The position numbers and the translations under genes were made by a program. From Bacilli bacterium (GTDB lineage Bacteria; Bacillota_I; Bacilli_A; RF39; UBA660), in the NCBI GenBank assembly GCA_035392025.1, contig DAOPMC010000001.1, positions 68-64,067 of the forward strand: 64,000 bases of DNA, read 5' to 3'. Shown here piece by piece: positions 9,612 to 63,904 of the stretch (position 1 is the first letter of the stretch; every line of letters starts with the position of its first letter). The notes beneath the pieces are model-generated. The model did no database searches. It was not told where the DNA came from and was given only the letters and a program-made list of their open reading frames with translations.

Positions 9612-10631
9612 TTAAATTGTGTCTATTTCTTTTAAATTGCACCAATATTTGGCTGTTCTTACCATTTGTGCACTATAACCCATTTCGTTATCATACCAAG
9701 CCACCACTTTGGCCATCTGTTTTCCATCAACATCAAGAACTGAAGTACATTTTAAATCAACAACTGCACCATACAATTCACCAATAACATCACTCGATAC
9801 TATCGGATCATTAGTGTAAGTAATTGTGTTGTTTACATTTTCTTTATATAAATTATTTATTTCTTCTACTGTTGCATTCTTTGATAATTCTAATACCAAA
9901 TCAACAACAGAACCCGTTGTTACCGGAACTCTAAGCGCAGTCCCAGATAACTTATTATCTAATTTAGGAATTACCTTACCAATTGCTTTAGCAGCCCCTG
10001 TTGAGGTTGGTACTATATTTGCAGCTGATGCTCTACCTCTTCTAGATTCTATTCCCTTTTTATGAGCAACATCTAAGTTTGCTTGATCATTGGTATACGC
10101 ATGCACCGTGGTCATATATCCTTTTACTATACCAATATTGTCATCCAGTACTTTAAGTACTGGCGCTAAACAATTTGTAGTACAACTTGCTGCCGAAATT
10201 ATTTTTTCATCACCATTTAAAATATTTTCATTAACATTATAAACGATAGTTTTAGCATCACCTTTTGCAGGTGCTGATATTATTACTTTCTTAGCACCAG
10301 CAGAAATATGTGCTCTTGCTTTTTCAACATCAGTGAATGCTCCTGTACATTCAAATACAACATCTACGCCTAATTCTCGCCATGGTAAATTTAATGGATC
10401 TTTTTCTGCAAATATTTTTATTTCCTTATTCCCTACTATCAACAAGTTTTCCTTAAAATCAATATCTTCCTTACGATATGAGCGATAATTAGTATCATAC
10501 TTTAATAAATATGCTAATTGTTCTGCATCAGTTAAATCATTAATCGCTACAACATTTATATCGTTATCTTGATCCATTAACCTAAAAACTAATCTTCCTA
10601 TTCTTCCAAAACCATTTATTGCTACTTTCAT
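9612..10631 (-). CDS. gap: Glyceraldehyde-3-phosphate dehydrogenase
   Basis: INGFGRIGR NAD-binding N-terminus and the catalytic SCTTNCLAP motif. Confidence 0.9.
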   Translation of the reverse strand: MKVAINGFGRIGRLVFRLMDQDNDINVVAINDLTDAEQLAYLLKYDTNYRSYRKEDIDFKENLLIVGNKEIKIFAEKDPLNLPWRELGVDVVFECTGAFTDVEKARAHISAGAKKVIISAPAKGDAKTIVYNVNENILNGDEKIISAASCTTNCLAPVLKVLDDNIGIVKGYMTTVHAYTNDQANLDVAHKKGIESRRGRASAANIVPTSTGAAKAIGKVIPKLDNKLSGTALRVPVTTGSVVDLVLELSKNATVEEINNLYKENVNNTITYTNDPIVSSDVIGELYGAVVDLKCTSVLDVDGKQMAKVVAWYDNEMGYSAQMVRTAKYWCNLKEIDTI

Positions 10632-10649
10632 ATATTTCTCTCCTTCTAT

Positions 10650-12302
10650 TTAATTGTGGAAAAATCCACCACCAATAAATTCCTTTAATATTGCATCATC
10701 TGGTACATATCTATCCGGTATTACTAAAAATATTTTTAATAAATTCATAAGCCTTTTGGCATCATCATAATGTTTTGAATCAGGTGACACAGTATATAAG
10801 AGTGATTCTGCAAACATCTTTAATACACCCATTTCGTATAACATTGCAGTATTTAATACATAATCTGCCTCATCCTGATATGGAAAAACATATTCCTCTT
10901 CTCCTGCTCTTACCTCCCCCCACATATCAAATACTTGATCAACACTATATCCTCTAGTTCTATGATCTCTAACCATCCTTCTCAAAAATCTATTATCAGA
11001 AGATGATAATCTATTATATTTATCAATATTCAAATTTGTTAAAGGACACACATATATCTTAAATTTTTTATTTCGAGGAATAGATTTAGTAAGTTCTTCA
11101 TTGAGACAATGTAACCCTTCTATAATCATTACATCATTTTCATGAAGTTTTAAATTTTTCTCAAATGATTTTGTTCCAGTTACAAAATTAAATGTTGGCA
11201 CTGTAACTTCTTCTCCAGCAAGCAACTGATTCATCTGCTTATTAAATAATTCCAAATCTACCGCTCTTAATGCCTCAAAATCATATTTACCGTTTTCTTT
11301 TTTAGGTGTTTCTTCTCTTTCAACAAAATAATCATCAAGAGAAATCACAACTGGATTTACACCAAACGTTTTAAGATAAAGTGACAGTTTTCTTGCAGAT
11401 GTTGTTTTCCCTGATGATGATGGTCCTGCTATTAAAATCATTTTAATCTTATCTTTTTCACGATTAATTTTTTTGGCTAAACCTAATAGTTTACTGTCAT
11501 AAGTAAGTTCATTCATACGAATTACATCTTGTATCTTGTCATCCATAATAAGTTTATTGACATCTGCAACATATCTAATGTTGAGCATATTACCCCATTC
11601 TTTTAGGTCATCAAATGCTTCAAACATCTTCTCATGATGAACATACTCAGGTACTTTACCATCTAAATAACTTACCGGCGTTTGCAAAATAAATACTCTA
11701 TCTCGCATTAATTGCAATCTAAATTTTGTAAATACACTAGTATTTATAGGCATTTTGCTGTAAAAATATTCATTTAATCCGCCAAGTTTATATATATTTA
11801 TATATGTGTTCGTATTATATAAAAGAGAATCAGCTTTAACTTCGTTGCCTTTTGATTTATAATATTCGATTGCTTCTTTTCGCTTGACAACTATTTTATC
11901 TATTGGTAGGTTAGCTTTGACTACTTCATTCATTTTATCAGTTATTTTTTTTAATCCTTCTTCATCAACATCAAAATTAGTCTCAACATATAATCCTTTA
12001 TCAATTGCATGACTAATCTCTATATCCTTGTCTTCCCCAAAACACTCTTTAATAGCATATACTAAAAGATAGATAAGCCCCTTTTGATAAACTCTATTAC
12101 CTATCCGTCCAGAGCAATCATAAAATTCAACAATACTATCTTTTTCTATCTTATTATTTAATTCCATTAAATCATTATTAACTCTTGCAACTAAAATTGG
12201 ATATTTAAAATCTCCTTTAAAATCTTGTGCAATATCAATAAGCCTAATACCACTATCGTAGGCATATTTTTTACCATTATATTCAATATTTATTTTTGCC
12301 AT
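10650..12302 (-). CDS. Fusion protein: ThrRS-like N-terminal (TGS/second-additional-domain-like) region plus uridine-kinase/PRK-family P-loop nucleoside kinase domain
   Basis: The N-terminal about 250 aa resemble the threonyl-tRNA synthetase N-terminal region; the C-terminal domain has IAGPSSSGKTT Walker A and a DDYF-type uridine kinase family signature. Confidence 0.55.
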   Translation of the reverse strand: MAKINIEYNGKKYAYDSGIRLIDIAQDFKGDFKYPILVARVNNDLMELNNKIEKDSIVEFYDCSGRIGNRVYQKGLIYLLVYAIKECFGEDKDIEISHAIDKGLYVETNFDVDEEGLKKITDKMNEVVKANLPIDKIVVKRKEAIEYYKSKGNEVKADSLLYNTNTYINIYKLGGLNEYFYSKMPINTSVFTKFRLQLMRDRVFILQTPVSYLDGKVPEYVHHEKMFEAFDDLKEWGNMLNIRYVADVNKLIMDDKIQDVIRMNELTYDSKLLGLAKKINREKDKIKMILIAGPSSSGKTTSARKLSLYLKTFGVNPVVISLDDYFVEREETPKKENGKYDFEALRAVDLELFNKQMNQLLAGEEVTVPTFNFVTGTKSFEKNLKLHENDVMIIEGLHCLNEELTKSIPRNKKFKIYVCPLTNLNIDKYNRLSSSDNRFLRRMVRDHRTRGYSVDQVFDMWGEVRAGEEEYVFPYQDEADYVLNTAMLYEMGVLKMFAESLLYTVSPDSKHYDDAKRLMNLLKIFLVIPDRYVPDDAILKEFIGGGFFHN

Positions 12303-20902: not shown

Positions 20903-23710
20903 CTACAATACTTTTTTTAAATACTCTCCAGTATATGATTTTTTGCAATTTGATACTTCTTCCGGAGTTCCTACACAAATTACTTCTCCGCCACGATCTC
21001 CACCATCTGGTCCTAAATCAATTATGTAATCTGCAACTTTTATTATATCTAAGTTGTGTTCAATTACTATTACACTATCTTTATTATCTACTATTTTATT
21101 CAAGATTGCAATAAGCTTCTTTACATCTGCTGAATGTAATCCAGTAGTTGGCTCATCTAAAATAAACATAGTTTTGCCTGTTGGCTTTTTCTGAAGTTCC
21201 TTTGCAAGTTTTACCCTAGCAGCTTCTCCACCAGATAATGTTACTGCATTTTGGCCTAGTTTAATATATCCTAGCCCTACTTCATCTAATACCTTAAGTT
21301 TGTTTTTTATTTTAGGCACATTTTCAAAAAATGTTAAAGCTTCAGTAACTCTCATTTCAAGTACATCATATATACTTTTACCCTTAAATTTTATTTTTAA
21401 TATTTCAGTATTATACCTTGTACCATGACATACTTCGCATGGAACATAAACATCTGGTAGGAAATGCATTTCAATTTTCTTAACACCATCTCCACGACAA
21501 GCTTCACATCTGCCACCTTTTACATTAAATGAAAATCTTCCTTTGTCATAACCCAATATTTTTGATTCTTTAGTGGTTGCAAATAAATCTCTAATATCAT
21601 CAAACACTCCAGTATAAGTTGCTGGGTTACTTCTAGGAGTTCTTCCAATTGGAGATTGAGATATATAAACAACTTTATCAATATTGTCTAATCCAATCAT
21701 TTTTTTATGTGGTCCTGGTTTAACTTTGCTATGATAAATACTTGATGCTAAAGCTTTATAAAGAGTCTCATTTACTAGTGTTGATTTACCACTTCCAGAC
21801 ACCCCAGTTACGCAAACAAACTTGCCCAAAGGAAATTTGACGTCAATATTTTTTAAATTATTAGCGTTTGCACCCCTTATTTCTACGTACTTGCCAGTTC
21901 CTTTCCTCCTGATTTTGGGCACTTCAATACATTCTTTCCCACTTAAGTATCTGCCAGTAATACTCTTATCACATTTCATTACCTCTTCCGGTGTTCCTGC
22001 TGATACTACATATCCACCTGCATCTCCAGCACCTGGGCCTATATCAATTAAGTAATCTGCCCTTCTCATTGTATCTAAATCGTGTTCAACAACAATTAAG
22101 GTATTACCTAAATCTCTCATTTTTATAAGAGCATCAATTAGTTTGTCATTATCTTTTTGGTGAAGACCAATACTAGGTTCATCAAGGACATATAAGACAC
22201 CTGTTAGTTCACTGCCAATTTGAGTCGCCAACCTAATTCTTTGCAATTCCCCGCCAGATAATGTCTCTGCTGAACGCGCAAGTGTCAAATAATCAAGACC
22301 AACGTTAATTAAAAATGTCAAACGCTCTTTAATGTTTTTTATGAGCAAACATGCTATCTGTTCTTTCTCTTTTCCTAATTTTAAATTATCTAAAAATCTA
22401 TACAAATTACCTATACTCATCTGTGTCATTTCATAAATATTTTTATCATCAATTAAGACTGATAAGACATCTTCATTTAATCTTGCACCATGACAAGTTG
22501 GACATTCATATTCAACCATAAAACGTTCTAGCCATTCTCTAACCCAAGTACTTGTTGTTTCCATATATCTTCTTTGAATATTATTTATTATTCCTTCATA
22601 ATAATCTACTTTGTTTGATATATTCCCACTTTTACTCGTTATACTAAATTTTATAGATTTTTTAGATCCATATAAAATAATATCCATCTGATCAGATTTT
22701 AACTTATTAACAGGCTTGTTCATATCTATTTTATAATATTTGCAAACCGTCTCTAACCTTTTATAATCTAAACTCTCTTGATCATCGCTTAAAACTGTAA
22801 TTGCACCTTCATTTAAACTGAGTTCTTTATCAGGTATAACTAAATCAGGATCCATTACCATTTTTACACCGAGACCCTTACAATCAGGACATGCACCATA
22901 TGGTGCATTAAAACTAAAAAGTCTAGGCTCCAATTCCGGAAGTGAGAAGTTACATTGTGGACACGCAAAAGCTTCAGAAAAAACTATTTCTTCTTTTCCA
23001 ATAACATCAATAACAACTTTACCATTTGCAAGTTTTGTGGCAGTCTCAATTGATTCATATAATCTACTTCTAATGTCTTCTTGAATCACTAATCTATCAA
23101 TAACAACTAATACAGAATGTTTTTTATTTTTATCTAAAATAATGTCTTGGTCTAAATCATAATTTTCTTTATCAATAATAACACGAACATAGCCATCTTT
23201 TCGAAGAGATTCAAATAAATCTTTGTGCGTCCCCTTCTCCCCATAGATGATTGGACTAAGGACCATTATCTTTGCACCCGATTCGAGTTCTAAAACTTTG
23301 TTAGTCATTTCCTCAATACTTTGTCTTGATATTGGAGTATGATGAATTTTACAATATGGGATACCAATTCGCGCATATAATAATCTTAAATAATCATATA
23401 TTTCAGTAACTGTCCCTACCGTTGATCTTGGATTTTTGCTAGTTGTTTTTTGATCAATACTTATGGCAGGTGAAAGACCGTCTATTGAATCTACATCTGG
23501 TTTTTCTGTCCCACCTAAAAATTGTCTAGCATATGAAGATAGACTTTCAAGATATCTTCTTTCCCCTTCTTTATAAATAGTATCAAACGCTAAACTACTT
23601 TTCCCAGAACCTGACACTCCAGTCATTACAACAAGTTTATTCTTGGGAATTTCTATATTAATATTTTTAAGATTATTTTCACGTGCTCCTTTTATAATTA
23701 TTTTATCCAT
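20903..23710 (-). CDS. uvrA: Excinuclease ABC subunit A
   Basis: 935 aa, duplicated ABC ATPase (two GVSGSGKS Walker A) and zinc-finger CxxC motifs. Confidence 0.95.
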
Positions 23711-23798
23711 AATATCACCTAATTTCTGCTAGATATTGTATCATAAAAATTTAAATTAATACACCTAAATATGTTATAATTGTTAAAAGAGGTGTAAC

Positions 23799-24257
23799 AT
23801 GACTAAAGATGATATATTAAATGAATTCCCAAATTTTGAAGAAAACATTAGAAACCTAACTAGTTTAGATGGAGTTAGATATTTTTATCATATAACTCCT
23901 AATAATGCCGAAGACATTATTAATGAAGGCTTATTTTTAAAAGAAAATAGGTTATCTTCTACAACAATTGAGTTACCAGATGAATTCTATGATGACCCTA
24001 TTTCATATTGTTTAGGTGAAAGAGGCCATGGTTATAGAGAAAATGCTAGTATTGTTCTTTTGGGTATACCAGAAGACGAGGTAGATTATGCAATTGAGCA
24101 AAACTACTCTGAGAGAGGTCACTGGAATGAATTTGACGATCCTAATTTTGTCATACCAAGCCAGTATATAATTGGTTACATTGACACTAATGATTTTAGC
24201 ATTAATTTAAATAGTGATTATATTCTAGCAAATGAGTATGATGACTTAAAATTATAA
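23799..24257 (+). CDS. Hypothetical protein
   Basis: 152-aa ORF with an upstream AGAGG RBS; acidic; no recognised motif. Confidence 0.4.
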   Translation: MTKDDILNEFPNFEENIRNLTSLDGVRYFYHITPNNAEDIINEGLFLKENRLSSTTIELPDEFYDDPISYCLGERGHGYRENASIVLLGIPEDEVDYAIEQNYSERGHWNEFDDPNFVIPSQYIIGYIDTNDFSINLNSDYILANEYDDLKL

Positions 24258-24263
24258 AAATAA

Positions 24264-24296
24264 AAACGAGTTGTATAAACAATTCGTTTTTTTTCT
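24264..24296 (+). terminator. Rho-independent terminator of the 23799 gene, abutting the ssrA 3' end
   Basis: AACGAGTTG-TATAAA-CAATTCGTT stem (one G-U pair) followed by an 8-T run. Confidence 0.45.
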
Positions 24297-24298
24297 TT

Positions 24299-24642
24299 TG
24301 GTGGAGCTGAGGGGAATTGAACCCCTGTCCAAAAATACAAATATTTAACTATCTACAAGTTTAGTTAATTAGTTAAATTCGCCATATAACTAATAATTAA
24401 CAAATATCATATGACTAGCTTATGGTTAATTTCTCTACTTCTTATAAGCACAAAAGTAGTATAGTTCACTTTAATTAGCCCTTAATATCTCTCGTGAACT
24501 AAGAGATAAGAAGAGCTTGCCTCTATATTAAATTAGGCAAATGCTAAATTTCTGTTTCCAGTTATTTAATTTGTTTGCATATAACGAGTGCCCCCGACTT
24601 GCAAATTAAACTTAATATCTCTGTCGAAACCAAATCAGCCCC
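24299..24642 (-). ncRNA. ssrA: tmRNA (transfer-messenger RNA, SsrA)
   Basis: Minus strand starts GGGGCTGATTTGGTTTCGACAG and ends ...GGGGTTCAATTCCCCTCAGCTCCACCA (tRNA-Ala-like T-arm plus acceptor/CCA); 5' GGGGCUG pairs with 3' CAGCUCC. An internal reading frame ends ...AAT TTA GCA TTT GCC TAA (tag ...NLAFA-stop). Confidence 0.85.
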
Positions 24643-24650
24643 GTTAGCAA

Positions 24651-24679
24651 ATTATAGCATATTTTTGCTAATTTGTCTA
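24651..24679 (-). promoter_or_regulatory. ssrA promoter embedded in the 3' end of the upstream TasA-like gene
   Basis: Minus strand TAGACA(-35)-17 nt-TATAAT(-10), then 8 nt to the tmRNA 5' G at 24642; the -35 overlaps the last codons and stop of CDS 24683-25288. Confidence 0.5.
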
Positions 24680-24682
24680 TGT

Positions 24683-25288
24683 TTAATGGTCCTGTGTCCC
24701 CGTTGCCTCTAACTTAGCACAATATACTTTACCAACATTATTCGTATAAACATCACTATTTATTGCAGTATCTGCTATCCAAATATATAGTTGATAGCTA
24801 TCAGTATCATTTAACCCACCATCTGCTGTTAATGTCTTATCAGATGCCAGCATATTAGCATTAGGATTAACGCTTATCGTATTAGTAGAATTATCAACAT
24901 CTACTAATTTATATCTTAATATGTCTGAACTTAGTGTATCGTCAGTACAAACTCCATCAACAAGCGCTGTGCAGCAGACAGAGGTCATTTTAAAGTTATA
25001 ATCTACTGCAATGCCAGATGTATTTTTTATAGTAAAAGAATAAGGTGTCCCAGATGATCCGTCGGTATCTGTCGTGGGTAGTGCACTTGTTAGAGATAAT
25101 ACATTACTTTCCCCAGAAAAAGTCAAAGTTAGTACACCTGATGTAACAGTATATGTCTTTGTTCCTGTAAAAGATCCTGCATAAAATGCATATGTAGTAT
25201 ATGATAATACCATTATAATTGCTACTATCCATAAGATAATACCTAATTTAGTAAACTTTAATTTACTTTCCTTTTTCTTTTTTACCAT
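24683..25288 (-). CDS. TasA/camelysin-like secreted protein, paralog P1 (SipW-cognate-type signal anchor)
   Basis: N-terminal Lys-rich segment plus TM, then YAFYAGSFTGT...VTSGVLTLTF...LTSALPTTD motif block shared with the other paralogs and resembling the TasA N-terminal domain; C-terminal Y.LYIWIAD motif shared with P4/P5. Confidence 0.55.
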   Translation of the reverse strand: MVKKKKESKLKFTKLGIILWIVAIIMVLSYTTYAFYAGSFTGTKTYTVTSGVLTLTFSGESNVLSLTSALPTTDTDGSSGTPYSFTIKNTSGIAVDYNFKMTSVCCTALVDGVCTDDTLSSDILRYKLVDVDNSTNTISVNPNANMLASDKTLTADGGLNDTDSYQLYIWIADTAINSDVYTNNVGKVYCAKLEATGTQDH

Positions 25289-25296
25289 ATTTCCTC

Positions 25297-25737
25297 CTAA
25301 TTATTTCCTTTAATTTGTCTTTTGATATCTATTTTTATATCTCGCTCTTTCATAGTTTCTCTCTTATCAAAATTCTTCTTGCCCTTACATAATCCTAATA
25401 ATATTTTAACCTTATTTTTGTTTAAATATACCTTAAGTGGTATTAGGGTATATCCTTCTAATTCCAGTTTAATATTTAATTTCTTTATTTCTTTTTTATG
25501 CATCAAGAGTTTTCTAGTTCTTGTTTCTATATGATTAAATGTTCCTGCTTCTTGATATTTTTTTATATACATATTAAGAATAAATAATTCATTATTTTTT
25601 ATAATTGCATAACTATCTTTAATATCACAAGATCCTTCTCTTACTGATTTAATCTCTGTTCCTTCAAGAACTATTCCACACTCATATTCTTCTTCTATGA
25701 AATAATTAAATTTAGCCTTTCTATTTAATATTTCCAT
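25297..25737 (-). CDS. smpB: SsrA-binding protein
   Basis: 146 aa; conserved SmpB core (GIVL.GTEIKS...) and basic C-terminal tail. Confidence 0.9.
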   Translation of the reverse strand: MEILNRKAKFNYFIEEEYECGIVLEGTEIKSVREGSCDIKDSYAIIKNNELFILNMYIKKYQEAGTFNHIETRTRKLLMHKKEIKKLNIKLELEGYTLIPLKVYLNKNKVKILLGLCKGKKNFDKRETMKERDIKIDIKRQIKGNN

Positions 25738-25738
25738 A

Positions 25739-27841
25739 TTAAACTACTCTCTTTCTTTCTAGTACCGGTTCAAAATCAATAAGCCTTTCTTCTTTATTAG
25801 CATTTACTAGTTTTACTTTTATATCATCACCTAAGTAATAAATTTTCTTATTATTTTTACCTTGAATTGTTTGATTTTCTTCATTTAATGTATAGAAGTC
25901 ATCCATCGTACTAAAATCCGCTCTACCTTCTATTGCATTATCTAAAGCTACAAACATTCCATTCTTAGTAAATCCTGAAATCATTCCTTCATACTCTTCG
26001 CCTATAAAGTTTTCCATATATTCTGCCATTTTCATTTTGTCAACTTCTCTTTCACAGTCAACTGCATCACGCTCTTTTAATGATGATTGAATAGCGATTA
26101 TTCTTAATTTTTGTAAATATTCTTTGCTAGTTACTTTAGCAATGTTGCCATCTAATATCTCATGGATTATTCTATGAAGTGATGTATCAGGATACCTTCT
26201 AATTGGAGATGTAAAATGAGAATAGCCTTCTTTTCGTTCAGCATTAACTGCAATACCATAGTGTCCATAATTGACAACATCATATTTAGCTTTTTTCATA
26301 CATCTCAAAAGATAACTTGATAGAATTGAAAACTTTTTAGAATCTTTCATCTTATTTAGTATACTTTGAATACATTTTGGCTTAACAGAAATATTTCCAT
26401 CTGGTGCAAACCCTTGGGCCCTCATAACGGTAATACCTTCGGTTAGTTTTTCTAAATCAGGTTCCTCATGTACACGATATATGTTGTGTGCTCCTAAATT
26501 AGTTACAAAGTTTGCGACTGCTTCATTAGCGGCAATCATAAAGTCTTCAATTAAGTTTTCTCCAGTTCCTTGAACTCTATTTTCAACGCCAAGAACTTTG
26601 CCATCTCTATCAACTAATATTTTAGGTTCATTTGTTTGAAACTCCAGCATGCCTCTTTTTCTTTTCATTTCTCTTAATATTATTGCAAGATCATTCATTT
26701 TCTTTAAGATATCTGCAAACTGTCCATAGCCTTCTGGAACTTCATTATTATCTAATATTTTATTAACATTTTTATATGTCATCTGCTTTTTAGAGTGAAT
26801 TACGCTTTTAAATACCTCTGTATTTATTGTTTTCCCATTTGGTGTTATTTCCATACGACAAGTAAGTGCCAATCTATCAGCTTCTGGATTAAGCGAACAT
26901 ATCCCATTTGATAGTTCTCTAGGATACATTGGCGATACTCTATCTGCTAGATAAACACTTGTTCCTCTTTCATATGCTTCTTTGTCTAAAGCAGAACCTT
27001 CTTTAACATAATGGGTAACATCTGCAATATGAACACTAAGAAGGAAATTACCATTATCAAGTTTTTTCATAGAAATAGCATCATCTATATCTTTAGTATC
27101 GTCTCCATCAATTGTAAATATTTCTTCGTTTCTTAAATCAACTCTACCCTTCATGTCAGATGCATCTACTGTTTGTTTTATATACTTTATTTCTTCTAGT
27201 ACTTCATCTGGAAATACATCATCGAAATTGTATTTATACATTACTTGTAGTATGTCATTACCTGGTTTTGTTTTATGTCCTAGGTCTTTCTCTATTTCTA
27301 AACTAAAACCATGTTTTTCTCTTCTAGTACCAAGTTTAACTAACAATAGTTCACCATCTACCATATTTAGCGGTGCATCACATTTTATCTTATTAAACTC
27401 ATCAAACTTAAAATATCTAATATTATTTTCCGTTATAATTTCTGCAATGTGATTAGATCTTTCAAGTACTTCCTTAATACCTGCCTCTGTTGGATTATTT
27501 CTATCTAGTTTGACAACAACACTATCTCCTAGAAGTGCCCCATTAATCTTAGTTGCAGGAATATATACATCTTCTTCACCCGGAATCCTTACAAAACCAA
27601 ATCCATTTTTAACAGAAATTAATTTGCCTTCTTTAAATGGACTAAGTTGAAAAGCTCCTGCCTTAGAGTTTGTGCAATAAATAACTTTATCATATAATAA
27701 CTCTCTTATTGCTTCCTCTACTTCTGCCTGCTTTTCAGGACTATTTTTAAATCCCATTTTCTTGACAATATCTATTACTCTAATAGAATTTGTACCAATT
27801 TTTTTAAATATTTCTAATATCTGTTCCTTCACAATTACCAC
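25739..27841 (-). CDS. rnr: Ribonuclease R
   Basis: 700 aa; RNB catalytic domain (DIDDAIS...) plus C-terminal S1 domain; secG-rnr-smpB synteny. Confidence 0.9.
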   Translation of the reverse strand: MVIVKEQILEIFKKIGTNSIRVIDIVKKMGFKNSPEKQAEVEEAIRELLYDKVIYCTNSKAGAFQLSPFKEGKLISVKNGFGFVRIPGEEDVYIPATKINGALLGDSVVVKLDRNNPTEAGIKEVLERSNHIAEIITENNIRYFKFDEFNKIKCDAPLNMVDGELLLVKLGTRREKHGFSLEIEKDLGHKTKPGNDILQVMYKYNFDDVFPDEVLEEIKYIKQTVDASDMKGRVDLRNEEIFTIDGDDTKDIDDAISMKKLDNGNFLLSVHIADVTHYVKEGSALDKEAYERGTSVYLADRVSPMYPRELSNGICSLNPEADRLALTCRMEITPNGKTINTEVFKSVIHSKKQMTYKNVNKILDNNEVPEGYGQFADILKKMNDLAIILREMKRKRGMLEFQTNEPKILVDRDGKVLGVENRVQGTGENLIEDFMIAANEAVANFVTNLGAHNIYRVHEEPDLEKLTEGITVMRAQGFAPDGNISVKPKCIQSILNKMKDSKKFSILSSYLLRCMKKAKYDVVNYGHYGIAVNAERKEGYSHFTSPIRRYPDTSLHRIIHEILDGNIAKVTSKEYLQKLRIIAIQSSLKERDAVDCEREVDKMKMAEYMENFIGEEYEGMISGFTKNGMFVALDNAIEGRADFSTMDDFYTLNEENQTIQGKNNKKIYYLGDDIKVKLVNANKEERLIDFEPVLERKRVV

Positions 27842-27885
27842 CTACAAAAATTATATCATAAAAAAAAGTTTCTTACGAAACTATT

Positions 27886-28101
27886 TTATAAAAATGACAT
27901 CACTACACAAATAATAAAGAAAGATAATCCTAAAACTAATGTTACTCTAGATATGAATAATTCACTACCTCTTTCTTTTCTATTACTAAACAAATCATCA
28001 TTGCCACCTGTAATTACTTTTGATGCTCCTTCTGCTTTACCACTTTGTAATAATACAATAGTGATTAATAAACATGATATAACTATTAATACTGTTTGCA
28101 T
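27886..28101 (-). CDS. secG: Preprotein translocase subunit SecG
   Basis: 71 aa, two TM segments; LLQSGK motif. Confidence 0.8.
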   Translation of the reverse strand: MQTVLIVISCLLITIVLLQSGKAEGASKVITGGNDDLFSNRKERGSELFISRVTLVLGLSFFIICVVMSFL

Positions 28102-28159
28102 AAAGTCCTCCTTGTTACTACATGTATTTTAATACATTTAAATAAAAATTGCAATATTA

Positions 28160-29104
28160 TTATTTAACGACTCCTATAATCCAAAAATAAATGTATACCC
28201 CCACTATTAAAACTGATGGGATTATATAAAATAATTTATATTTTGTTTGTTTCTTTAAACTTTGAATGAAACTAAGTGAAGTTATAACAAGGGCTATTTT
28301 TATTAAAAATAAGCTATCACTATCCATAAATATATATATTGGATTGTTTTTTATTAAGAGATCACTTATGCCAAGTACAAACAAATTAAATATGTTACTA
28401 CCTAATATATCAGTTAATGCCATATTATAATTTTTAAGTTTTATAAGCGTAATAAATGTTATTACTTCTGGTAGTGATGTTGTTATTCCTAGAAGTATTG
28501 CTCCAATAATACTTCCCGATACTCTAGGATATTCAAGTGATATTACATTAACTATCTTAGTTAAAAAAATACTACTTGCTATTAATAATATGGCGCATAT
28601 TATCATTTTAGTAATTATACCTTTTTTAGGTTTTTCATCTTGTACTATTGTGTTTTTGGTTTTTGATATTTTAGCTATATAGAAAGCATAGGATAAAAAC
28701 AATAAAATTGTTGGAATTCCAATACTTCCAAAAGATGAGTTGTCACTTAAAAAAAAGATTGATAAATAGCATACAATCATTGCTAAATATTCGTAAAAAT
28801 AATTCTTTGATACTTTTGAAAATATAAACTCTTTGATAATAAATATATCAATTACTGCCATCATAAATAAATTAAATATGTTACTACCTAAAACATCCCC
28901 TATTGCTAAATGTGGATTATTCATCTTTACTGCCGTTAACGTGGTAACCAGTTCGGGCAAACTGGTTATTGCTGCTAGTAACAGCCCCGATATGATAAAT
29001 CCCATTTTTTTACTACTTTTGCTCAAACTATCAGCATAATGAGATATTTTAATGCTAAGTATCACAGTTATTGCTGCTAGCAAGAAAAAAAATATAACAT
29101 TCAC
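28160..29104 (-). CDS. Ca2+:cation antiporter (CaCA / YrbG family) membrane protein
   Basis: Two internal alpha-repeats: GDVLGSNIFNL... and TDILGSNIFNL... Confidence 0.75.
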   Translation of the reverse strand: MNVIFFFLLAAITVILSIKISHYADSLSKSSKKMGFIISGLLLAAITSLPELVTTLTAVKMNNPHLAIGDVLGSNIFNLFMMAVIDIFIIKEFIFSKVSKNYFYEYLAMIVCYLSIFFLSDNSSFGSIGIPTILLFLSYAFYIAKISKTKNTIVQDEKPKKGIITKMIICAILLIASSIFLTKIVNVISLEYPRVSGSIIGAILLGITTSLPEVITFITLIKLKNYNMALTDILGSNIFNLFVLGISDLLIKNNPIYIFMDSDSLFLIKIALVITSLSFIQSLKKQTKYKLFYIIPSVLIVGVYIYFWIIGVVK

Positions 29105-56788: not shown

Positions 56789-58366
56789 TTACATCTCAGT
56801 TACAACATATGGATCAGCACTAGTTCCAGTACCTGTCACTTTAACTGTTGGTGCTAAATTTATTACAGGATATACATCCATAGAAGTGCTAGTAGATGTG
56901 CTGATAACTTCACCAATACTATTTGTCGATAACATATATGAAACACTGTTACTATATCCATAGGCAGACATGGTAAAATATGATGAAGTTTGTCTTAATA
57001 TATTAAATTTATTGATAACTCCAAGTTTTAATCCTGCGTATATTAGTTCATCACTTGATAACAATCCTATTTTTACATCATATAGATATGAATTAGAACA
57101 GGCATATGATGGAGAACCACTATTTGCCCTAGTATATGCTGAAGATGTATCATTACAGAAACTAGCTGATGATACAAATTTATCATAGTTTGATAAAGTA
57201 GAATCATACCATGATTCTAAACTCGTTTTAATCGCTGAATCCTCTGTTCCACTTCCACCATCATAAGTATACCCCAAATACGTAGATGCATTTGATAGAG
57301 CGTTATATGTACTTGCAGTTCCTGTTGCTGTTGTTTTAACTAATCTTATAGTATCATCTTCATTAACCCTAACAATTCGCCAATTTGAACCTGCAAATAA
57401 AACATAATTATTTATAATGTTTCCTCGATAAAAATATGTATCCTTACTATCTTGCCCAGTTACTTTATATACCCCGTTTTCCACAGTATATAATGATTGT
57501 GCACCATTATTATTATAATAACTCGTACATGTCGTTAAATTATAGTTTGCATTGTTTGAATCACAATATTGGCAATAATCACTGACATAATAATTACCCA
57601 TTGTGTCACACACTTTAGTTTGATAGTCTGAAACTGATGTTGGGGCATTATCATAATATGTTGAACTTGCAGCAGCTTTGGTAGTTGTAATTGCAGTTGT
57701 AATAACATTTTCTTCATCTTCTCCAATTATCAAATCTTTTAATAATAATGGTGTCTCCTGAGAAGAAGATACTATTAACTTTTTATGAAAATGTCTTCCT
57801 ACTATGCTACTTGGTGCATCTGATTTTATCCAAGTATTTAGTGAATATGTAACAGATGCTCCTACATTTAATGATACTCTTAATATTTGTCCTCCTGTAG
57901 TTAGTTCCATAGGTTCATAAGTAATTGAGTTTGTCTCATCTATTAACTGATATCTAACATTATTATTATCAAGCAGATTAGAATTACATCCACAAGTCGT
58001 AATTGCATCCGTATCGTTTTCTAAAGTTAAAGTTACGATTGCTTTTACATTGCCACTATTTGTTACTCTAAATTTATATGGTGTTTGTAATATTCCTTCC
58101 GCATCACTTTTAGGAAGTGCATTGGTAAGTGATATTGTGCCGCCTAGACCAGTTGCTGTATCATCAAAAGTAACACTAAGAGAACCAACAGTTACCGTAT
58201 TATGCCCAGTTCCTTCATCTAAATCAGTAAATATGGCAAAACTAGAACCCGCAATTAAAAATACTAACACAAAAATTGATATGAAACTTATAATTGCTTC
58301 CTTACCATATTTTTGTATTAATCTTTCTTTTTTTAATTTTAAGTATCCTAGTCTTTCTTTTTCCAT
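56789..58366 (-). CDS. TasA/camelysin-like secreted protein, paralog P3 (525 aa, extended C-terminal region)
   Basis: Basic N-terminus plus TM, then AGSSFAIFTDLDEGTGHNTVTVGSLSVTF...ISLTNALPKSD...YKFRVTNSGNVKAIVTL, which aligns with the SipW-cognate signal region and N-terminal domain of B. subtilis TasA (AFND...TFASGTLDL...NLSNLKPGD...FQFENNGSLAIK). Confidence 0.65.
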   Translation of the reverse strand: MEKERLGYLKLKKERLIQKYGKEAIISFISIFVLVFLIAGSSFAIFTDLDEGTGHNTVTVGSLSVTFDDTATGLGGTISLTNALPKSDAEGILQTPYKFRVTNSGNVKAIVTLTLENDTDAITTCGCNSNLLDNNNVRYQLIDETNSITYEPMELTTGGQILRVSLNVGASVTYSLNTWIKSDAPSSIVGRHFHKKLIVSSSQETPLLLKDLIIGEDEENVITTAITTTKAAASSTYYDNAPTSVSDYQTKVCDTMGNYYVSDYCQYCDSNNANYNLTTCTSYYNNNGAQSLYTVENGVYKVTGQDSKDTYFYRGNIINNYVLFAGSNWRIVRVNEDDTIRLVKTTATGTASTYNALSNASTYLGYTYDGGSGTEDSAIKTSLESWYDSTLSNYDKFVSSASFCNDTSSAYTRANSGSPSYACSNSYLYDVKIGLLSSDELIYAGLKLGVINKFNILRQTSSYFTMSAYGYSNSVSYMLSTNSIGEVISTSTSTSMDVYPVINLAPTVKVTGTGTSADPYVVTEM

Positions 58367-58419
58367 GATACACCTACTATATATTATACCATTTTTATTA
58401 TAACATATTTTTTATAGAT

Positions 58420-58638
58420 TTAAACCCCTTTTATAACCAAATTTTTGATTAGAACATCGTTATAAGAAAAAGATTTAATTGATCTTGTATTTATTTCTTT
58501 AACCAAAAAAACTCTATTGTAAGTCTCTACTATAACCCCTTCAAACTCTTCTATTTGATTTCTGCTACCATTTATCCTAAAAGATAGACTTTTCCCAACA
58601 TTAGATTTTATATATTCTTTTATATGTTCTAAACTCAT
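58420..58638 (-). CDS. veg: Veg family protein (DUF1021, biofilm-stimulating)
   Basis: 72 aa; matches Veg (...IK..L..NLGK.L.....GGR......G.L.ETY.SVF...). Confidence 0.7.
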   Translation of the reverse strand: MSLEHIKEYIKSNVGKSLSFRINGSRNQIEEFEGVIVETYNRVFLVKEINTRSIKSFSYNDVLIKNLVIKGV

Positions 58639-60415: not shown

Positions 60416-60940
60416 TTATGCATTAACAGTTTCTTCAGTTTCTATCTTTTCTACAACTTCTTCTTTAGGCAATTCTTCAACTACTTCTATAACTTTCTCT
60501 TTTACTACTTTTTTTTCTCTAAAGATTCTATAATTTATTACAAGCACAAGATCTGATATAAACAATAAATAAATAAGTAATTTAATAGTACCTAAGTTAT
60601 CAGATAAATAAGATGGACTATAATTAATACCATACTTGTAATATAGCATCATATTAGTATCAAATTTAGCACGATAACCAATATATACTATTGCACCAAG
60701 TACAATTACTGCTGTTATGTTATAGAAGAAATTACGATTAATTATTTTTTGGCGTCCCATAAGATTAATAATATACATAATTAGTAAAAGTACAAATGGT
60801 AACATAATAGGGATTGAATCTGTTACTGATTTATCAAGTCTTGTATAAGTCAGCAGTAATCCATAAAATATTAAACCCATAGCTACAAGTAATAAAAGTA
60901 TTCTTAAAACTACAAATAAGCCATTTATTAACTGCTTCAT
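60416..60940 (-). CDS. Hypothetical polytopic membrane protein (last gene of the SipW locus)
   Basis: 174 aa, about 4 TM segments, acidic/Lys-rich C-terminal tail; 4-nt overlap with the upstream gene. Confidence 0.4.
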   Translation of the reverse strand: MKQLINGLFVVLRILLLLVAMGLIFYGLLLTYTRLDKSVTDSIPIMLPFVLLLIMYIINLMGRQKIINRNFFYNITAVIVLGAIVYIGYRAKFDTNMMLYYKYGINYSPSYLSDNLGTIKLLIYLLFISDLVLVINYRIFREKKVVKEKVIEVVEELPKEEVVEKIETEETVNA

Positions 60941-61668
60941 TGTGTCACCTCCCCAGTTGTTGCTGTTGCTCTTACTTCTTCTAAATAATCAACAATTTCA
61001 TCAAGTATATTTGCTGATTGTTCATAATTATCTAAAAGTCTTTCATAAATAACTTTTGTTGGATTATATATGGTATTTCTAGTATCAACTGTAGTATAGC
61101 TGTAGGAACTATTTCCCATTAGCCAATTTTCTAACACTGTATTACTAGCTGTTATTTGATAAATAACCGGTTGATGCATTGCTAGCGTGCTAACCATTTT
61201 TTCATCTTCATATAAGTCAGATGATGCCGTTGTTCTTATTACTCCCATTTGATAAGCTAAACATTCTCCTCTAAATGAATTGAAATCTTTATAATAAGTG
61301 TAATTAGTAAAAGCATCTGCTGTTTCGATAGGTGTCTTGTAAAGTTCCATTTTTTTAAATTCATCAGTACATATTTTTAGTCCTAATCTAATTTTTTCAT
61401 AATATATAGCTTTATTATTAACACCAAATACAGTAAAACTAATTGTTGAAAGTCTATTATCAGCATCATCTATTTTTTTTACAATGTTTTCTCTTTTTGT
61501 TTTTCCTTCGTCATTAATATAATAATCATATTGCAGTTCTTGTGCATGATAGACATTAGCAAATATTAAATACCCTGCCATAAGCAAAGAGATAATTAAA
61601 ATTGCACCAACTAATAAATTAATTAATTCCCCAAAAGTCTTCTTCAGCATCTTCTTCCCTCTTTTCAA
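60937..61668 (-). CDS. Hypothetical membrane-anchored protein with a large extracytoplasmic domain (SipW-locus associated)
   Basis: 243 aa; basic N-terminus and a single TM, then a Tyr/Thr/Asn-rich domain; the start overlaps the sipW 3' end, so the true start may be an internal Met. Confidence 0.4.
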   Translation of the reverse strand: MKRGKKMLKKTFGELINLLVGAILIISLLMAGYLIFANVYHAQELQYDYYINDEGKTKRENIVKKIDDADNRLSTISFTVFGVNNKAIYYEKIRLGLKICTDEFKKMELYKTPIETADAFTNYTYYKDFNSFRGECLAYQMGVIRTTASSDLYEDEKMVSTLAMHQPVIYQITASNTVLENWLMGNSSYSYTTVDTRNTIYNPTKVIYERLLDNYEQSANILDEIVDYLEEVRATATTGEVTQ

Positions 61669-62341
61669 TTCTTTTTTCTTCTATTATAACTTTTTTCTCA
61701 GGTTCTTTATGTTCTACTTCTACAGGAGTGGTAATTGTTTTAACATTATCTATATTAGTAGTTTCTTGTAGATTTCTTTTTCTTTCTAGTAATTTCTTTC
61801 TCCTGGTAAATATTTTTACGAAGTCAAATATAATTATACCCATACACGGAACTACTATCGCAACTAGCCAACCAAATTTGGTCGCTAAGAATTGTTGAAT
61901 ATATCCTATCTTTGGTATTTTTAAAATAACTTTACCCATTATATTTTTAGTAAGTACTGCTGGAGAATCTTCGGTATTATTAGCATCACCTTTTGTAACA
62001 TAAGCTGTCTCTCCATCACGAAGTGTTATTTTGACAATTCTGTGAGTAACAGTAATACCTTGTGTATATGTTCCATCCGATATATATGTTACAACATCAC
62101 CTATTGCATATACATCATCTTTCGTTTTAAAAGTTATTATCATATCCCCAGCTTTAATCTTAGGGGACATGCTTTGGGTTAGGATAACATACATATTAAA
62201 AGGAACTTTATCTAATTTATCTTGTTTTTGCATTACTTTGATATATACTACATACGCTGCAAGAAGTACTATTAAGATAAGCAAAAGCGTAAGAATAGTT
62301 TTAGATATTATTCTTAAAATTAATGCTATTTTTTTCTTCAT
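61619..62341 (-). CDS. sipW: Signal peptidase I, SipW / Sec11-type (Ser-His, S26B)
   Basis: N-terminal TM, ER/archaeal-type SPase boxes: TQSMSP (catalytic Ser), GDVVTY, THRIV (catalytic His), KGDANNTEDS; C-terminal TM plus charged tail. Confidence 0.7.
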   Translation of the reverse strand: MKKKIALILRIISKTILTLLLILIVLLAAYVVYIKVMQKQDKLDKVPFNMYVILTQSMSPKIKAGDMIITFKTKDDVYAIGDVVTYISDGTYTQGITVTHRIVKITLRDGETAYVTKGDANNTEDSPAVLTKNIMGKVILKIPKIGYIQQFLATKFGWLVAIVVPCMGIIIFDFVKIFTRRKKLLERKRNLQETTNIDNVKTITTPVEVEHKEPEKKVIIEEKRIEKREEDAEEDFWGIN

Positions 62342-62353
62342 AATTTCACCCTT

Positions 62354-63127
62354 TTATTCTACATATCCTATAACATTTACAATACATTTAAAAGTTCTAG
62401 TTGTATTATCTAATTCATAATTATTGGCAACCCAAAGTCTAAGACGATATGAATTTGTTTGAGTTGTGGTAAGTTCTTTTGTATATAATTTTTTAGCATT
62501 TGAGGCATGAGTGCTATTATCTAAATTTGTATATGTTGGAATTACTCCCGTAAAACCAGATGCTGCTGCTCCATTTTCCTCTAAATAAACTTTAATATAT
62601 GCTGGATCTAATTTTAAACCACTTATTAATGCTTCTGTAAGATATATTTCATATGTTACTTTTTTAACTTTAGGATTATTATTTAAGTTAAAAGTAATTT
62701 GAAAATCAAAGTATTCGTTTGTCCCAGATAACGCTTTACCAAGTTCATCAGTCATAGGATAAGCATTTACTATATCAATAGCTGAATCAGCTTCGCTATA
62801 AGAAAATAGTACCATTCCAACATCAATATTGTTAGAGCCTCCCGTTGAACCACCATTATTAACATAATCTGTTATAGAAAAGGTGATAAATGATGCTCCT
62901 GCAATTAATGCTACTAACATAACAATTAGTAACCAAATGGGTACTATTCCTCTATTTGGTTTTATATATAACTGTTGTCCTACTACTATATTAGTATCTT
63001 CAAGTTCATTAATTTTTATGATAGACTTTTCAGTTACATCATATTTATCTGCAATAGATGCTAAAGTATCATTTTCTTTTACTATATATATAATATATCT
63101 TAAATTGTCATTCTTATCTTTTACCAT
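62354..63127 (-). CDS. LysM-domain pro-region plus TasA/camelysin-like secreted protein, paralog P4
   Basis: Residues about 12-56 form a LysM motif (DTLASIADKY.V....I...N.L....I..GQ.L.IP). A TM follows with ALIAGASFITFSITD, nearly identical to the P3 cleavage region LIAGSSFAIFTDLDE. C-terminal SYRLRLWVANNYELD motif shared with P5 and P1. Confidence 0.6.
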   Translation of the reverse strand: MVKDKNDNLRYIIYIVKENDTLASIADKYDVTEKSIIKINELEDTNIVVGQQLYIKPNRGIVPIWLLIVMLVALIAGASFITFSITDYVNNGGSTGGSNNIDVGMVLFSYSEADSAIDIVNAYPMTDELGKALSGTNEYFDFQITFNLNNNPKVKKVTYEIYLTEALISGLKLDPAYIKVYLEENGAAASGFTGVIPTYTNLDNSTHASNAKKLYTKELTTTQTNSYRLRLWVANNYELDNTTRTFKCIVNVIGYVE

Positions 63128-63194
63128 AAAATACTAGCATCCTCTCTTACACTATCTCTATTATTGATAATAACATAAATTTTAATAAAAATAA

Positions 63195-63223
63195 ATAAAA
63201 AAGACTTATTTTTCATAAGTCTA
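63195..63223 (-). terminator. Rho-independent terminator between P5 and P4
   Basis: AGACTTAT-TTTTCA-ATAAGTCT hairpin followed on the minus strand by a T-run. Confidence 0.5.
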
Positions 63224-63238
63224 ATCATATTAAATAAA

Positions 63239-63904
63239 TTATGCTGTTGCTTGAACATTTACTTTGAATGTATATGTTGCTGCTGTTGTTGTATTTGAAA
63301 TTGTATCATTTGATGTAGTATTATCATTTGTTGTTAAATCATATTCATCATCTACCCAAAATTGAATACGGAATGTTTCATTTGCTGCTGTTGTAATTTG
63401 CCTTGAAGCAAAATAGTTAGTTGCTGACATATAACTACCAAGTACTTTTGGTGCTAATGTCCATGTTCCTGATGCAGCAAGGCACGCTGCCTCTGTGTCT
63501 CCGGTTCCTGAGCAACTTCCATATCCTTCAACTGCTTTACCATTAGCATCTACTTCAACAAAGTTAATTTTAGTTTCATCTAAATCACCTGTTTGAGATA
63601 CTTCAGTAAAGTATAGTACATATGTAAAAGTAACTCCAGATGCAAGTGTTGGTACTACAGTAAATGTATAATAATTAGTGTTAGTACTGTGGCCTTTATC
63701 ATATGTCATTGGATATTGATTTGTTAAAGTTGCTACAGTTTCATCACTAAATGCTATAGATAACTGTGAAGTAGAGATAGATGATGTTCTTGTACCAGTA
63801 GCACTAAAGCTATACATTGCATAAGATACTCCAACTACTGCAATAACTAGTACTAAAACAGCTACAATAGAAAGTATTATTTGCTTTGAATTATTTTTTT
63901 CCAT
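63239..63904 (-). CDS. TasA/camelysin-like secreted protein, paralog P5 (221 aa, TasA-sized)
   Basis: Basic N-terminus, TM, YAMYSFSATGTRTSSISTSQLSIAF... block; C-terminal FRIQFWVDDEYDL motif. Size and position (first gene, own terminator) resemble a major fibre subunit like tasA. Confidence 0.6.
   Translation of the reverse strand: MEKNNSKQIILSIVAVLVLVIAVVGVSYAMYSFSATGTRTSSISTSQLSIAFSDETVATLTNQYPMTYDKGHSTNTNYYTFTVVPTLASGVTFTYVLYFTEVSQTGDLDETKINFVEVDANGKAVEGYGSCSGTGDTEAACLAASGTWTLAPKVLGSYMSATNYFASRQITTAANETFRIQFWVDDEYDLTTNDNTTSNDTISNTTTAATYTFKVNVQATA

Follow-up and report, generated by a model that had tools for sequence, protein, structure and literature searches.

The secG-rnr-smpB-ssrA cluster is known to carry unrelated passengers, such as yvaK/fphH in Bacillales (PMC10644348), and in Streptococcus pneumoniae the secG, rnr and smpB genes are transcribed together from the promoter PsecG (PMC3534368). 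The fibre proteins TasA of Bacillus subtilis and CalY/camelysin of Bacillus cereus (PF12389, 'Peptidase_M73'; fibre structure PDB 8AUR) are part of a superfamily, TasA/BsaA, that iterative searches with hidden Markov models are reported to extend far past PF12389 (preprint PMC11580942). Here we describe a gene that joins a protein of the second kind to a locus of the first. In a 64-kb stretch of DNA (hereafter the window; 29% GC) from a metagenome-assembled genome deposited as 'Bacilli bacterium', an open reading frame (ORF) of 201 amino acids (24683-25288, minus strand; HPE14230.1, 'hypothetical protein') lies between smpB and ssrA, the gene for transfer-messenger RNA (tmRNA). We describe its product as a TasA-superfamily secreted beta-sandwich protein and the gene as a dispersed paralog of genes at a sipW locus. 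The explanation that we consider likely is that an inserted, SipW-processed member of the TasA superfamily rides on the smpB transcript, with ssrA under a promoter of its own.

The locus is encoded entirely on the minus strand, in the order secG, rnr, smpB, 201-aa ORF, ssrA. The smpB gene (25297-25737; PF01668, E 2.6e-56; deposited as HPE14231.1, SsrA-binding protein SmpB) ends in TAG (25299-25297), and 8 nt separate this stop from the ATG of the ORF (25288). The Shine-Dalgarno sequence of the ORF, AGGAGG (25293-25298, minus strand), was read from the sequence and overlaps the smpB stop. The ORF itself ends in TAA (24685-24683), and the 5' G of the tmRNA (24642) follows 40 nt downstream. We identified ssrA (24299-24642) with ARAGORN, which gave the tag GNRNLAFA, and with Rfam RF00023, which matched over its full length (169.9 bits). 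The sequence and the ARAGORN, Rfam and PF01668 matches thus confirm the layout and distances given in the initial annotation.

A word-indexed search of 5.8 billion proteins returned only three close relatives of the ORF product, with 99%, 53% and 49% identity, and a scan of metagenome contigs for further orthologs found none beyond three lineages. The 99% identical strain variant and the two orthologs of 198 aa (54%) and 206 aa (52%) are each encoded directly after smpB. In all three lineages the gap between smpB and the ORF is 8-11 nt and contains a conserved GGAGG, which stands 4 nt 5' of the ATG at the orthologous loci L001 and L003 as well. The ratio of nonsynonymous to synonymous substitution (dN/dS) of the ORF is about 0.15-0.19, at saturated dS. 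The ORF product is 56% identical between L001 and L003, compared with 88% for SmpB, and the ORF evolves about five times faster than smpB; it is constrained and fast-evolving, and fast evolution is common among surface proteins. By these comparisons the ORF is a genuine gene.

Its position is conserved as well. The closest genome, L001 (SmpB 73% and UvrA 78% identical), shares with the window the order murD-eno-...-secG-rnr-smpB-ORF...ssrA...uvrA-lgt-trxB. The next relatives with a linked smpB-ssrA pair (SmpB 62-71%) have gaps of 77 nt (L019), 121 nt (L005) and 50 nt (L008), with no homolog of the ORF in any of these three. More distant linked pairs are 149-251 nt apart, and other relatives have ssrA elsewhere. 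The proposal that the ORF interrupts an otherwise contiguous smpB-ssrA pair is upheld, in that the nearest linked outgroups have the gap without the gene. The initial annotation had offered two readings, an unusual regulatory coupling or an old insertion, and the second is the better one: the gene follows smpB in three lineages and is absent from the next linked relatives. By parsimony, one insertion in the shared ancestor of the lineages of the window, L001 and L003 is favoured. The synteny comparison that the annotation suggested as a check shows an arrangement that is old and fixed, but within a narrow clade only. The order smpB-ORF-ssrA is a clade-restricted gene-order variant that brings in a new member of a superfamily already known, and it reveals no new mechanism.

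Nor is a passenger in this array without precedent. As in the known passenger-bearing array, the gene order and strand are the same, an unrelated gene is embedded and ssrA comes after smpB. In contrast to that array, where an esterase passenger lies between secG and rnr, here the smpB-ssrA gap is occupied, the product is a secreted structural protein and the arrangement is confined to a small clade. Among the relatives, one to four extra genes lie between rnr and smpB in L005 (4791-5996), L007 (4828-6000) and L010 (1760-5939), so that interruptions of the array are frequent in this group. These genes, together with the known yvaK/fphH, suggest that the secG-rnr-smpB array tolerates passengers, and the precedents (PMC10644348 and the extra rnr-smpB genes of the relatives) speak against calling the coupling unusual.

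The 40-nt spacer between the ORF and ssrA, which on the minus strand reads TAA-ACA-TAGACA-aattagcaaaaataTGc-TATAAT-ttgctaac-GGGG, holds the ssrA promoter (24651-24679, minus strand). It has a -35 element TAGACA (24679-24674), a 17-nt spacer that ends in TGC and so provides an extended -10 (TG at 24659-24658), and a -10 element TATAAT (24656-24651) that lies 8 nt from the tmRNA G. It is the top sigma-70-type match in 23600-28400 (11/12 plus the extended -10 TG), and the pattern TTGACA-N14-TGN-TATAAT with at most one mismatch has two sites in the window against 0.16 expected. The -35 hexamer starts 3 nt past the ORF stop; the core promoter lies entirely in the spacer and the coding sequence reaches only the zone upstream of the -35. 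The initial annotation had placed this promoter, TAGACA-17-TATAAT with 8 nt to the +1 G, inside the 3' end of the ORF and overlapping its last codons. The promoter is real and conserved, but it abuts the stop instead.

The same arrangement, TAGACA-17-(TG)TATAAT, stands 8-9 nt before the tmRNA 5' end in L004 (the strain variant), L003 and L001. Seven relatives, the outgroups L019, L005 and L008 included, all have an invariant TATAAT at 8-9 nt 5' of the tmRNA, and conservation of the sequence sets in some 2 nt upstream of the -35. The window and L003 share a compact layout in which 2-3 nt part the stop from the -35. L001 has about 2 kb more here; its ssrA comes after a convergent gene and a strong hairpin (-15.3 kcal/mol, z -6), and the promoter is retained. 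Because L001 keeps it despite the 2-kb separation, the promoter is predicted to be ssrA's own, to work without upstream read-through and to be sufficient alone.

Two features near this promoter deserve mention. An 8-nt inverted repeat, TTAGCAAA/TTTGCTAA, surrounds the -10 within 24643-24679 (minus strand; RNA fold -10.5 kcal/mol, z -4.0). We rejected it as a terminator hairpin, as it has no U-tract and is not conserved in L001 or L003; it could be a chance repeat or a local operator. In L001, an ORF with Flg_new repeats (10455-11774) lies 3' of the ortholog in the +1 frame, with no start codon after the ortholog stop and no signal peptide, and together with a reverse 185-aa gene it sets the ssrA promoter ~2 kb further from the ortholog. 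This ORF resembles a C-terminal adhesin extension that has been split off or frameshifted, or a fragment inserted here. Programmed +1 frameshifting into it was set aside, since the sequence AAC-UAA-G would give the P-site tRNA no re-pairing.

To place the protein, a profile of the ORF, its orthologs and its paralogs was compared with 1.84 billion representatives, and 6,315 clusters matched at E<=1e-3. About half of this family carries C-terminal extensions (LRR_5/BspA, Big, DUF6273 and ALK_LTK_GRD). PF12389 is by far the commonest match for the shared domain: it was found (E<=0.1) in 25 of 105 family representatives, with a best E of 4.4e-6, and the member P0120 reaches 23.0 bits, above the gathering score of 22.5 bits. 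The TasA query sequence was checked against PDB 8AUR and 5OF1, and a TasA-family alignment (A5) was built from it. Comparison by hhalign of a diverse family alignment (A4) with A5 gave 92.7% probability (E 4.3e-7); trimmed to the shared domain the values were 94.6% and E 6.5e-8, and for the mature parts alone 65% and E 6e-5, with E of 0.33-0.69 in reversed controls. The matched region takes in the TasA cleavage site, the donor strand of TasA (its residues 28-38; PMC9674648) and the G-T-L and N-x-G blocks.

The AlphaFold2 (AF2) model of the ORF product (predicted local distance difference test, pLDDT, 81) has an N-terminal helix followed by a beta-sandwich, with residues 41-52 as a low-confidence, unpacked segment, and Foldseek ranked donor-strand pilins, TasA and AbpA highest for it, with weak scores throughout. 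When the PDB was searched by sequence with the family profile, no TasA came up, only a transmembrane-helix artefact and two non-significant archaeal pilin-like matches (E 1.6). Membership of the TasA/camelysin superfamily by remote homology is well supported by the profile comparisons, although the ORF is not a member of PF12389 by Pfam's own criterion. The description 'TasA-like' in the initial annotation is thus borne out at the remote, superfamily level by profile evidence and, more weakly, by fold evidence, but not as a direct family match.

The ORF begins with a predicted SipW-type signal peptide (residues 1-34; 25187-25288, minus strand) that has a KKKK n-region, a hydrophobic core and T32-Y33-A34, with predicted cleavage before F35. 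The family motif, G-x-[ST]-[YF]-A/x-[FY] with the slash at the cleavage site, has Ala at -1 in 101 of the 105 representatives and Ser, Thr or Ala at -3 in all 105, and hhalign sets it against G-T-W-A/A-F-N-D of TasA. Cleavage is predicted after Ala34 because the -3 and -1 residues are near-invariant across the family. No NCBIfam signal-peptide model matched the ORF. The presumed processing enzyme is a SipW-like (archaeal/ER-type) signal peptidase I (61619-62341, minus strand), which scores 96.3 bits on TIGR02228 (cutoff 51.85) and 98 bits on the SipW model NF046067, under its cutoff of 190. It is 34-45% identical to the same-operon peptidase of relatives, and the ORF lies 36 kb distant from it.

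The paralogs of the ORF lie mostly beside this peptidase. Searches of the window by blastp and phmmer identified a 221-aa paralog (63239-63904, minus strand) and a 257-aa LysM-containing paralog (62354-63127, minus strand) next to sipW. A third, of 525 aa (56789-58366, minus strand), is located between veg and spoVG; its TasA-like N-domain is the closest relative of the ORF in the window (blastp 27.7% identity over 206 aa, E 8e-14), and its C-domain of ~320 aa has no assigned family. In L043, L045 and L047 the operon reads tatD-[3-5 paralogs]-sipW-(small ORF)-p243-like-p174-like-ksgA-yabG-veg-spoVG-yabP, and 60416-63904 of the window is the same operon. Because the conserved operon lies there, we regard the smpB-ssrA copy and the 525-aa copy as dispersed paralogs in gaps of housekeeping or sporulation arrays. 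Two of the proteins encoded there, of 243 and 174 aa, are unassigned membrane proteins, and the operon has the sporulation neighbours yabG, spoVG, yabP and yabQ; its non-peptidase proteins match no Pfam or NCBIfam model. The veg gene is an unlisted small gene within 58367-58635, and relatives keep veg and spoVG adjacent. In the 257-aa paralog the LysM domain (residues 14-56) is N-terminal to the hydrophobic signal or anchor segment, a topology puzzle, as the domain would then face the cytoplasm or belong to a propeptide that is cleaved off.

The ORF shares several features with TasA and CalY. The Sec signal peptide ends in small-aromatic-Ala (T-W-A in TasA, T-Y-A in the ORF), the first ~60 mature residues of the ORF family contain N-x-[IF]-x-x-G-T-L and F-x-[IL]-x-N-x-G blocks, and a SipW-type peptidase is encoded beside the paralogs. 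Unlike TasA, the mature protein has ~167 aa rather than 234 aa and is without the helical insertions and C-terminal tail, no tapA was recognised, and the ORF copy sits in the smpB-ssrA gap, away from sipW. Four cysteines (residues 105, 106, 114 and 190), also a difference from TasA, are invariant in the ORF and its two orthologs and absent from the wider family. BsaA and BsaB of Clostridium perfringens (sipW-bsaA-bsaB-bsaC; PMC11580942) are likewise remote TasA homologs with several paralogs per genome; they are processed by SipW and polymerise by donor-strand exchange, as is predicted for the ORF product. A difference is that BsaA forms an intermolecular Asn-Lys isopeptide bond. Family position 46 is Asn in 76 of the 105 representatives, within the block N-x-I-x-x-G-T-L (TasA-family consensus N-x-F-A-A-G-T-L), and this residue might correspond to Asn35 of BsaA, which forms the isopeptide; in the ORF and its two orthologs the position is Tyr. 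The bundling pilin AbpA (PDB 7UEG; PMC9245690), in contrast to the ORF locus, is archaeal, has no dedicated SipW and belongs to a different operon.

Taken with the gene anatomy, these comparisons suggest a model for the origin and expression of the ORF. A dispersed paralog of the multi-paralog sipW operon would have inserted exactly between the smpB stop and the ssrA -35 in the ancestor of a narrow clade of uncultured Bacilli. The gene appears to have no promoter of its own and is most likely carried on the secG-rnr-smpB transcript, because its ribosome-binding site overlaps the smpB stop. Terminator prediction over 23600-28400 found none between smpB and the ORF and none before ssrA. The coupling to smpB that the initial annotation proposed is therefore retained: with AGGAGG over the smpB stop and no predicted terminator between, the ORF looks transcriptionally and translationally coupled. 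In this model ssrA retains a strong, conserved sigma-A-type promoter just past the ORF stop. Operon read-through probably enters ssrA too, as no terminator lies in between, and RNase P cutting at the tmRNA 5' end would part the RNAs. The exported product would be cut after Ala34, likely by the SipW-like peptidase 36 kb away, and the mature protein would probably join or form surface or matrix fibres by N-terminal donor-strand exchange, like TasA, BsaA and AbpA. It is plausible that a surface protein would in this way be co-expressed constitutively with the genes for ribosome rescue.

Several observations weigh against parts of this model. Searches of Pfam and NCBIfam with the ORF gave no match at E<=1, PF12389 and TIGR04088 among them. 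The sequence homology to TasA is limited to the signal peptide and the first ~60 mature residues (~82 columns), and the link is clear only with the more diverse alignment A4: a shallower alignment, A2, reached only 24.6% against the TasA alignment and 9.8% against the single TasA sequence. AF2 draws residues 9-40 as a single helix, which is compatible with an uncleaved membrane anchor. With three orthologous lineages known, the insertion's age and spread are judged from few genomes, and there is a weak promoter-like site (9/12; 25426-25398) within smpB. The single helix, the missing PF12389 match and the low A2 value would fit a product that is no TasA-type fibre subunit but a generic beta-sandwich protein of the surface, which an N-terminal helix that stays uncleaved would hold in the membrane, for example as a stalk or anchor module; many family members with large C-terminal LRR, Big or Flg_new modules are also as one would expect of a cell-proximal module. 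However, the small-residue -3/-1 motif after the hydrophobic core is near-invariant and aligns to the point at which TasA is known from experiment to be cleaved, the family's core operon retains a dedicated SipW-type peptidase, and the best fold matches are donor-strand polymers. We consider such an anchored protein unlikely, though it is the most serious competitor to a secreted fibre subunit. The site within smpB could instead mean that the ORF is transcribed independently, which would imply no coupling to the trans-translation operon, and weak promoters are plentiful in AT-rich genomes. But 9/12 sites occur here at chance frequency (27 found, 29.6 expected), no terminator is predicted after smpB, and three diverged lineages all keep the 8-11 nt gap, with a Shine-Dalgarno sequence over or next to the smpB stop, so we hold independent transcription to be somewhat less probable still.

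Islands and prophages that target tmRNA genes integrate in the 3' end of ssrA, duplicate that end as att sites and carry an integrase. The initial annotation had connected the insertion to this hotspot, and both ssrA flanks do differ between the window and L001, so variable or foreign DNA adjoins ssrA here as it does in such elements. In every other respect the locus differs from them. The gene lies 5' of ssrA, with smpB on one side of it and the promoter on the other; with up to three mismatches allowed, the window contains the tmRNA 3' end once only, and we found no meaningful flanking repeats around the ORF and no integrase or other mobile gene near it. The composition of the ORF is normal (GC 33-35%, inside the local range), PADLOC gave no match and PHROGs nothing significant (one family of unknown function at E 0.006, by the signal peptide only). 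The genome also has paralogs of the gene, and lineages with orthologs only ~50% identical all keep it in this position. The ORF as a remnant of a mobile element or genomic island aimed at ssrA is thus largely refuted and very improbable, and the hotspot connection falls with it. Even less credible is a product that serves trans-translation as an accessory, co-located through a shared pathway. It would account for the tight smpB-ssrA placement conserved in three lineages, but for nothing else: the protein is predicted to carry a secretion signal at its N-terminus and to fold as an extracellular-type beta-sandwich, its paralogs adjoin a signal peptidase or unrelated genes, and the gene is absent from nearly all bacteria with SmpB and tmRNA, the nearest outgroups included. 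We therefore favour an inserted TasA-superfamily gene, probably SipW-processed and read from the smpB transcript.

The remaining genes around the locus are as follows. The array is headed by secG (27886-28101, minus strand), taken from the ORF list and 54-81% identical to secG of relatives, followed by rnr (RNase R; 25739-27841, minus strand), a 700-aa ORF that is 44-48% identical to its counterparts; in L001 these counterparts bear PF03840 and RNB/S1 domains, respectively. The only terminator-like site in 23600-28400 is downstream of ssrA, a bidirectional hairpin (24262-24291; RNA fold -11.5 kcal/mol, z -4.5) common to ssrA and a convergent 152-aa ORF (23799-24257, plus strand). The latter is an orphan with no match in Pfam, NCBIfam, PHROGs or PADLOC. 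At the ssrA 3' flank L001 has, in its place, a collagen-like 268-aa gene and a 90-aa gene; because the genes there differ between L001 and the window, this flank is variable, though it has no att repeat.

The smpB-ssrA pair is usually deemed inseparable where it is linked, and this locus indicates that it can accept and keep a passenger gene, one that comes as close as 2-3 nt to the -35 element of ssrA. From the same locus comes a phylogenetically footprinted ssrA promoter for this group, and HPE14230.1, so far a 'hypothetical protein', gains a superfamily assignment. A bolder reading, which we regard as doubtful and less probable than either an anchored product or independent transcription, is that the ORF comes from a very large, uncharacterised family of SipW-dependent donor-strand fibre or adhesin modules, and that in this clade one such subunit has been tied permanently to the trans-translation operon, which is constitutive and stress-responsive. 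No Pfam or NCBIfam model covers this family, which numbers at least 6,300 clusters and whose core operon is conserved in uncultured spore-forming Bacilli. If this were true, the mRNA of the ORF, without a terminator of its own, would end where RNase P excises the tmRNA, and the supply of fibre subunits and the maturation of tmRNA would be physically linked on one precursor. More broadly, the TasA-related family to which the ORF points is large and unannotated and has a conserved sipW operon in uncultured Bacilli; this should be useful both for annotation and for research on Gram-positive surface fibres.

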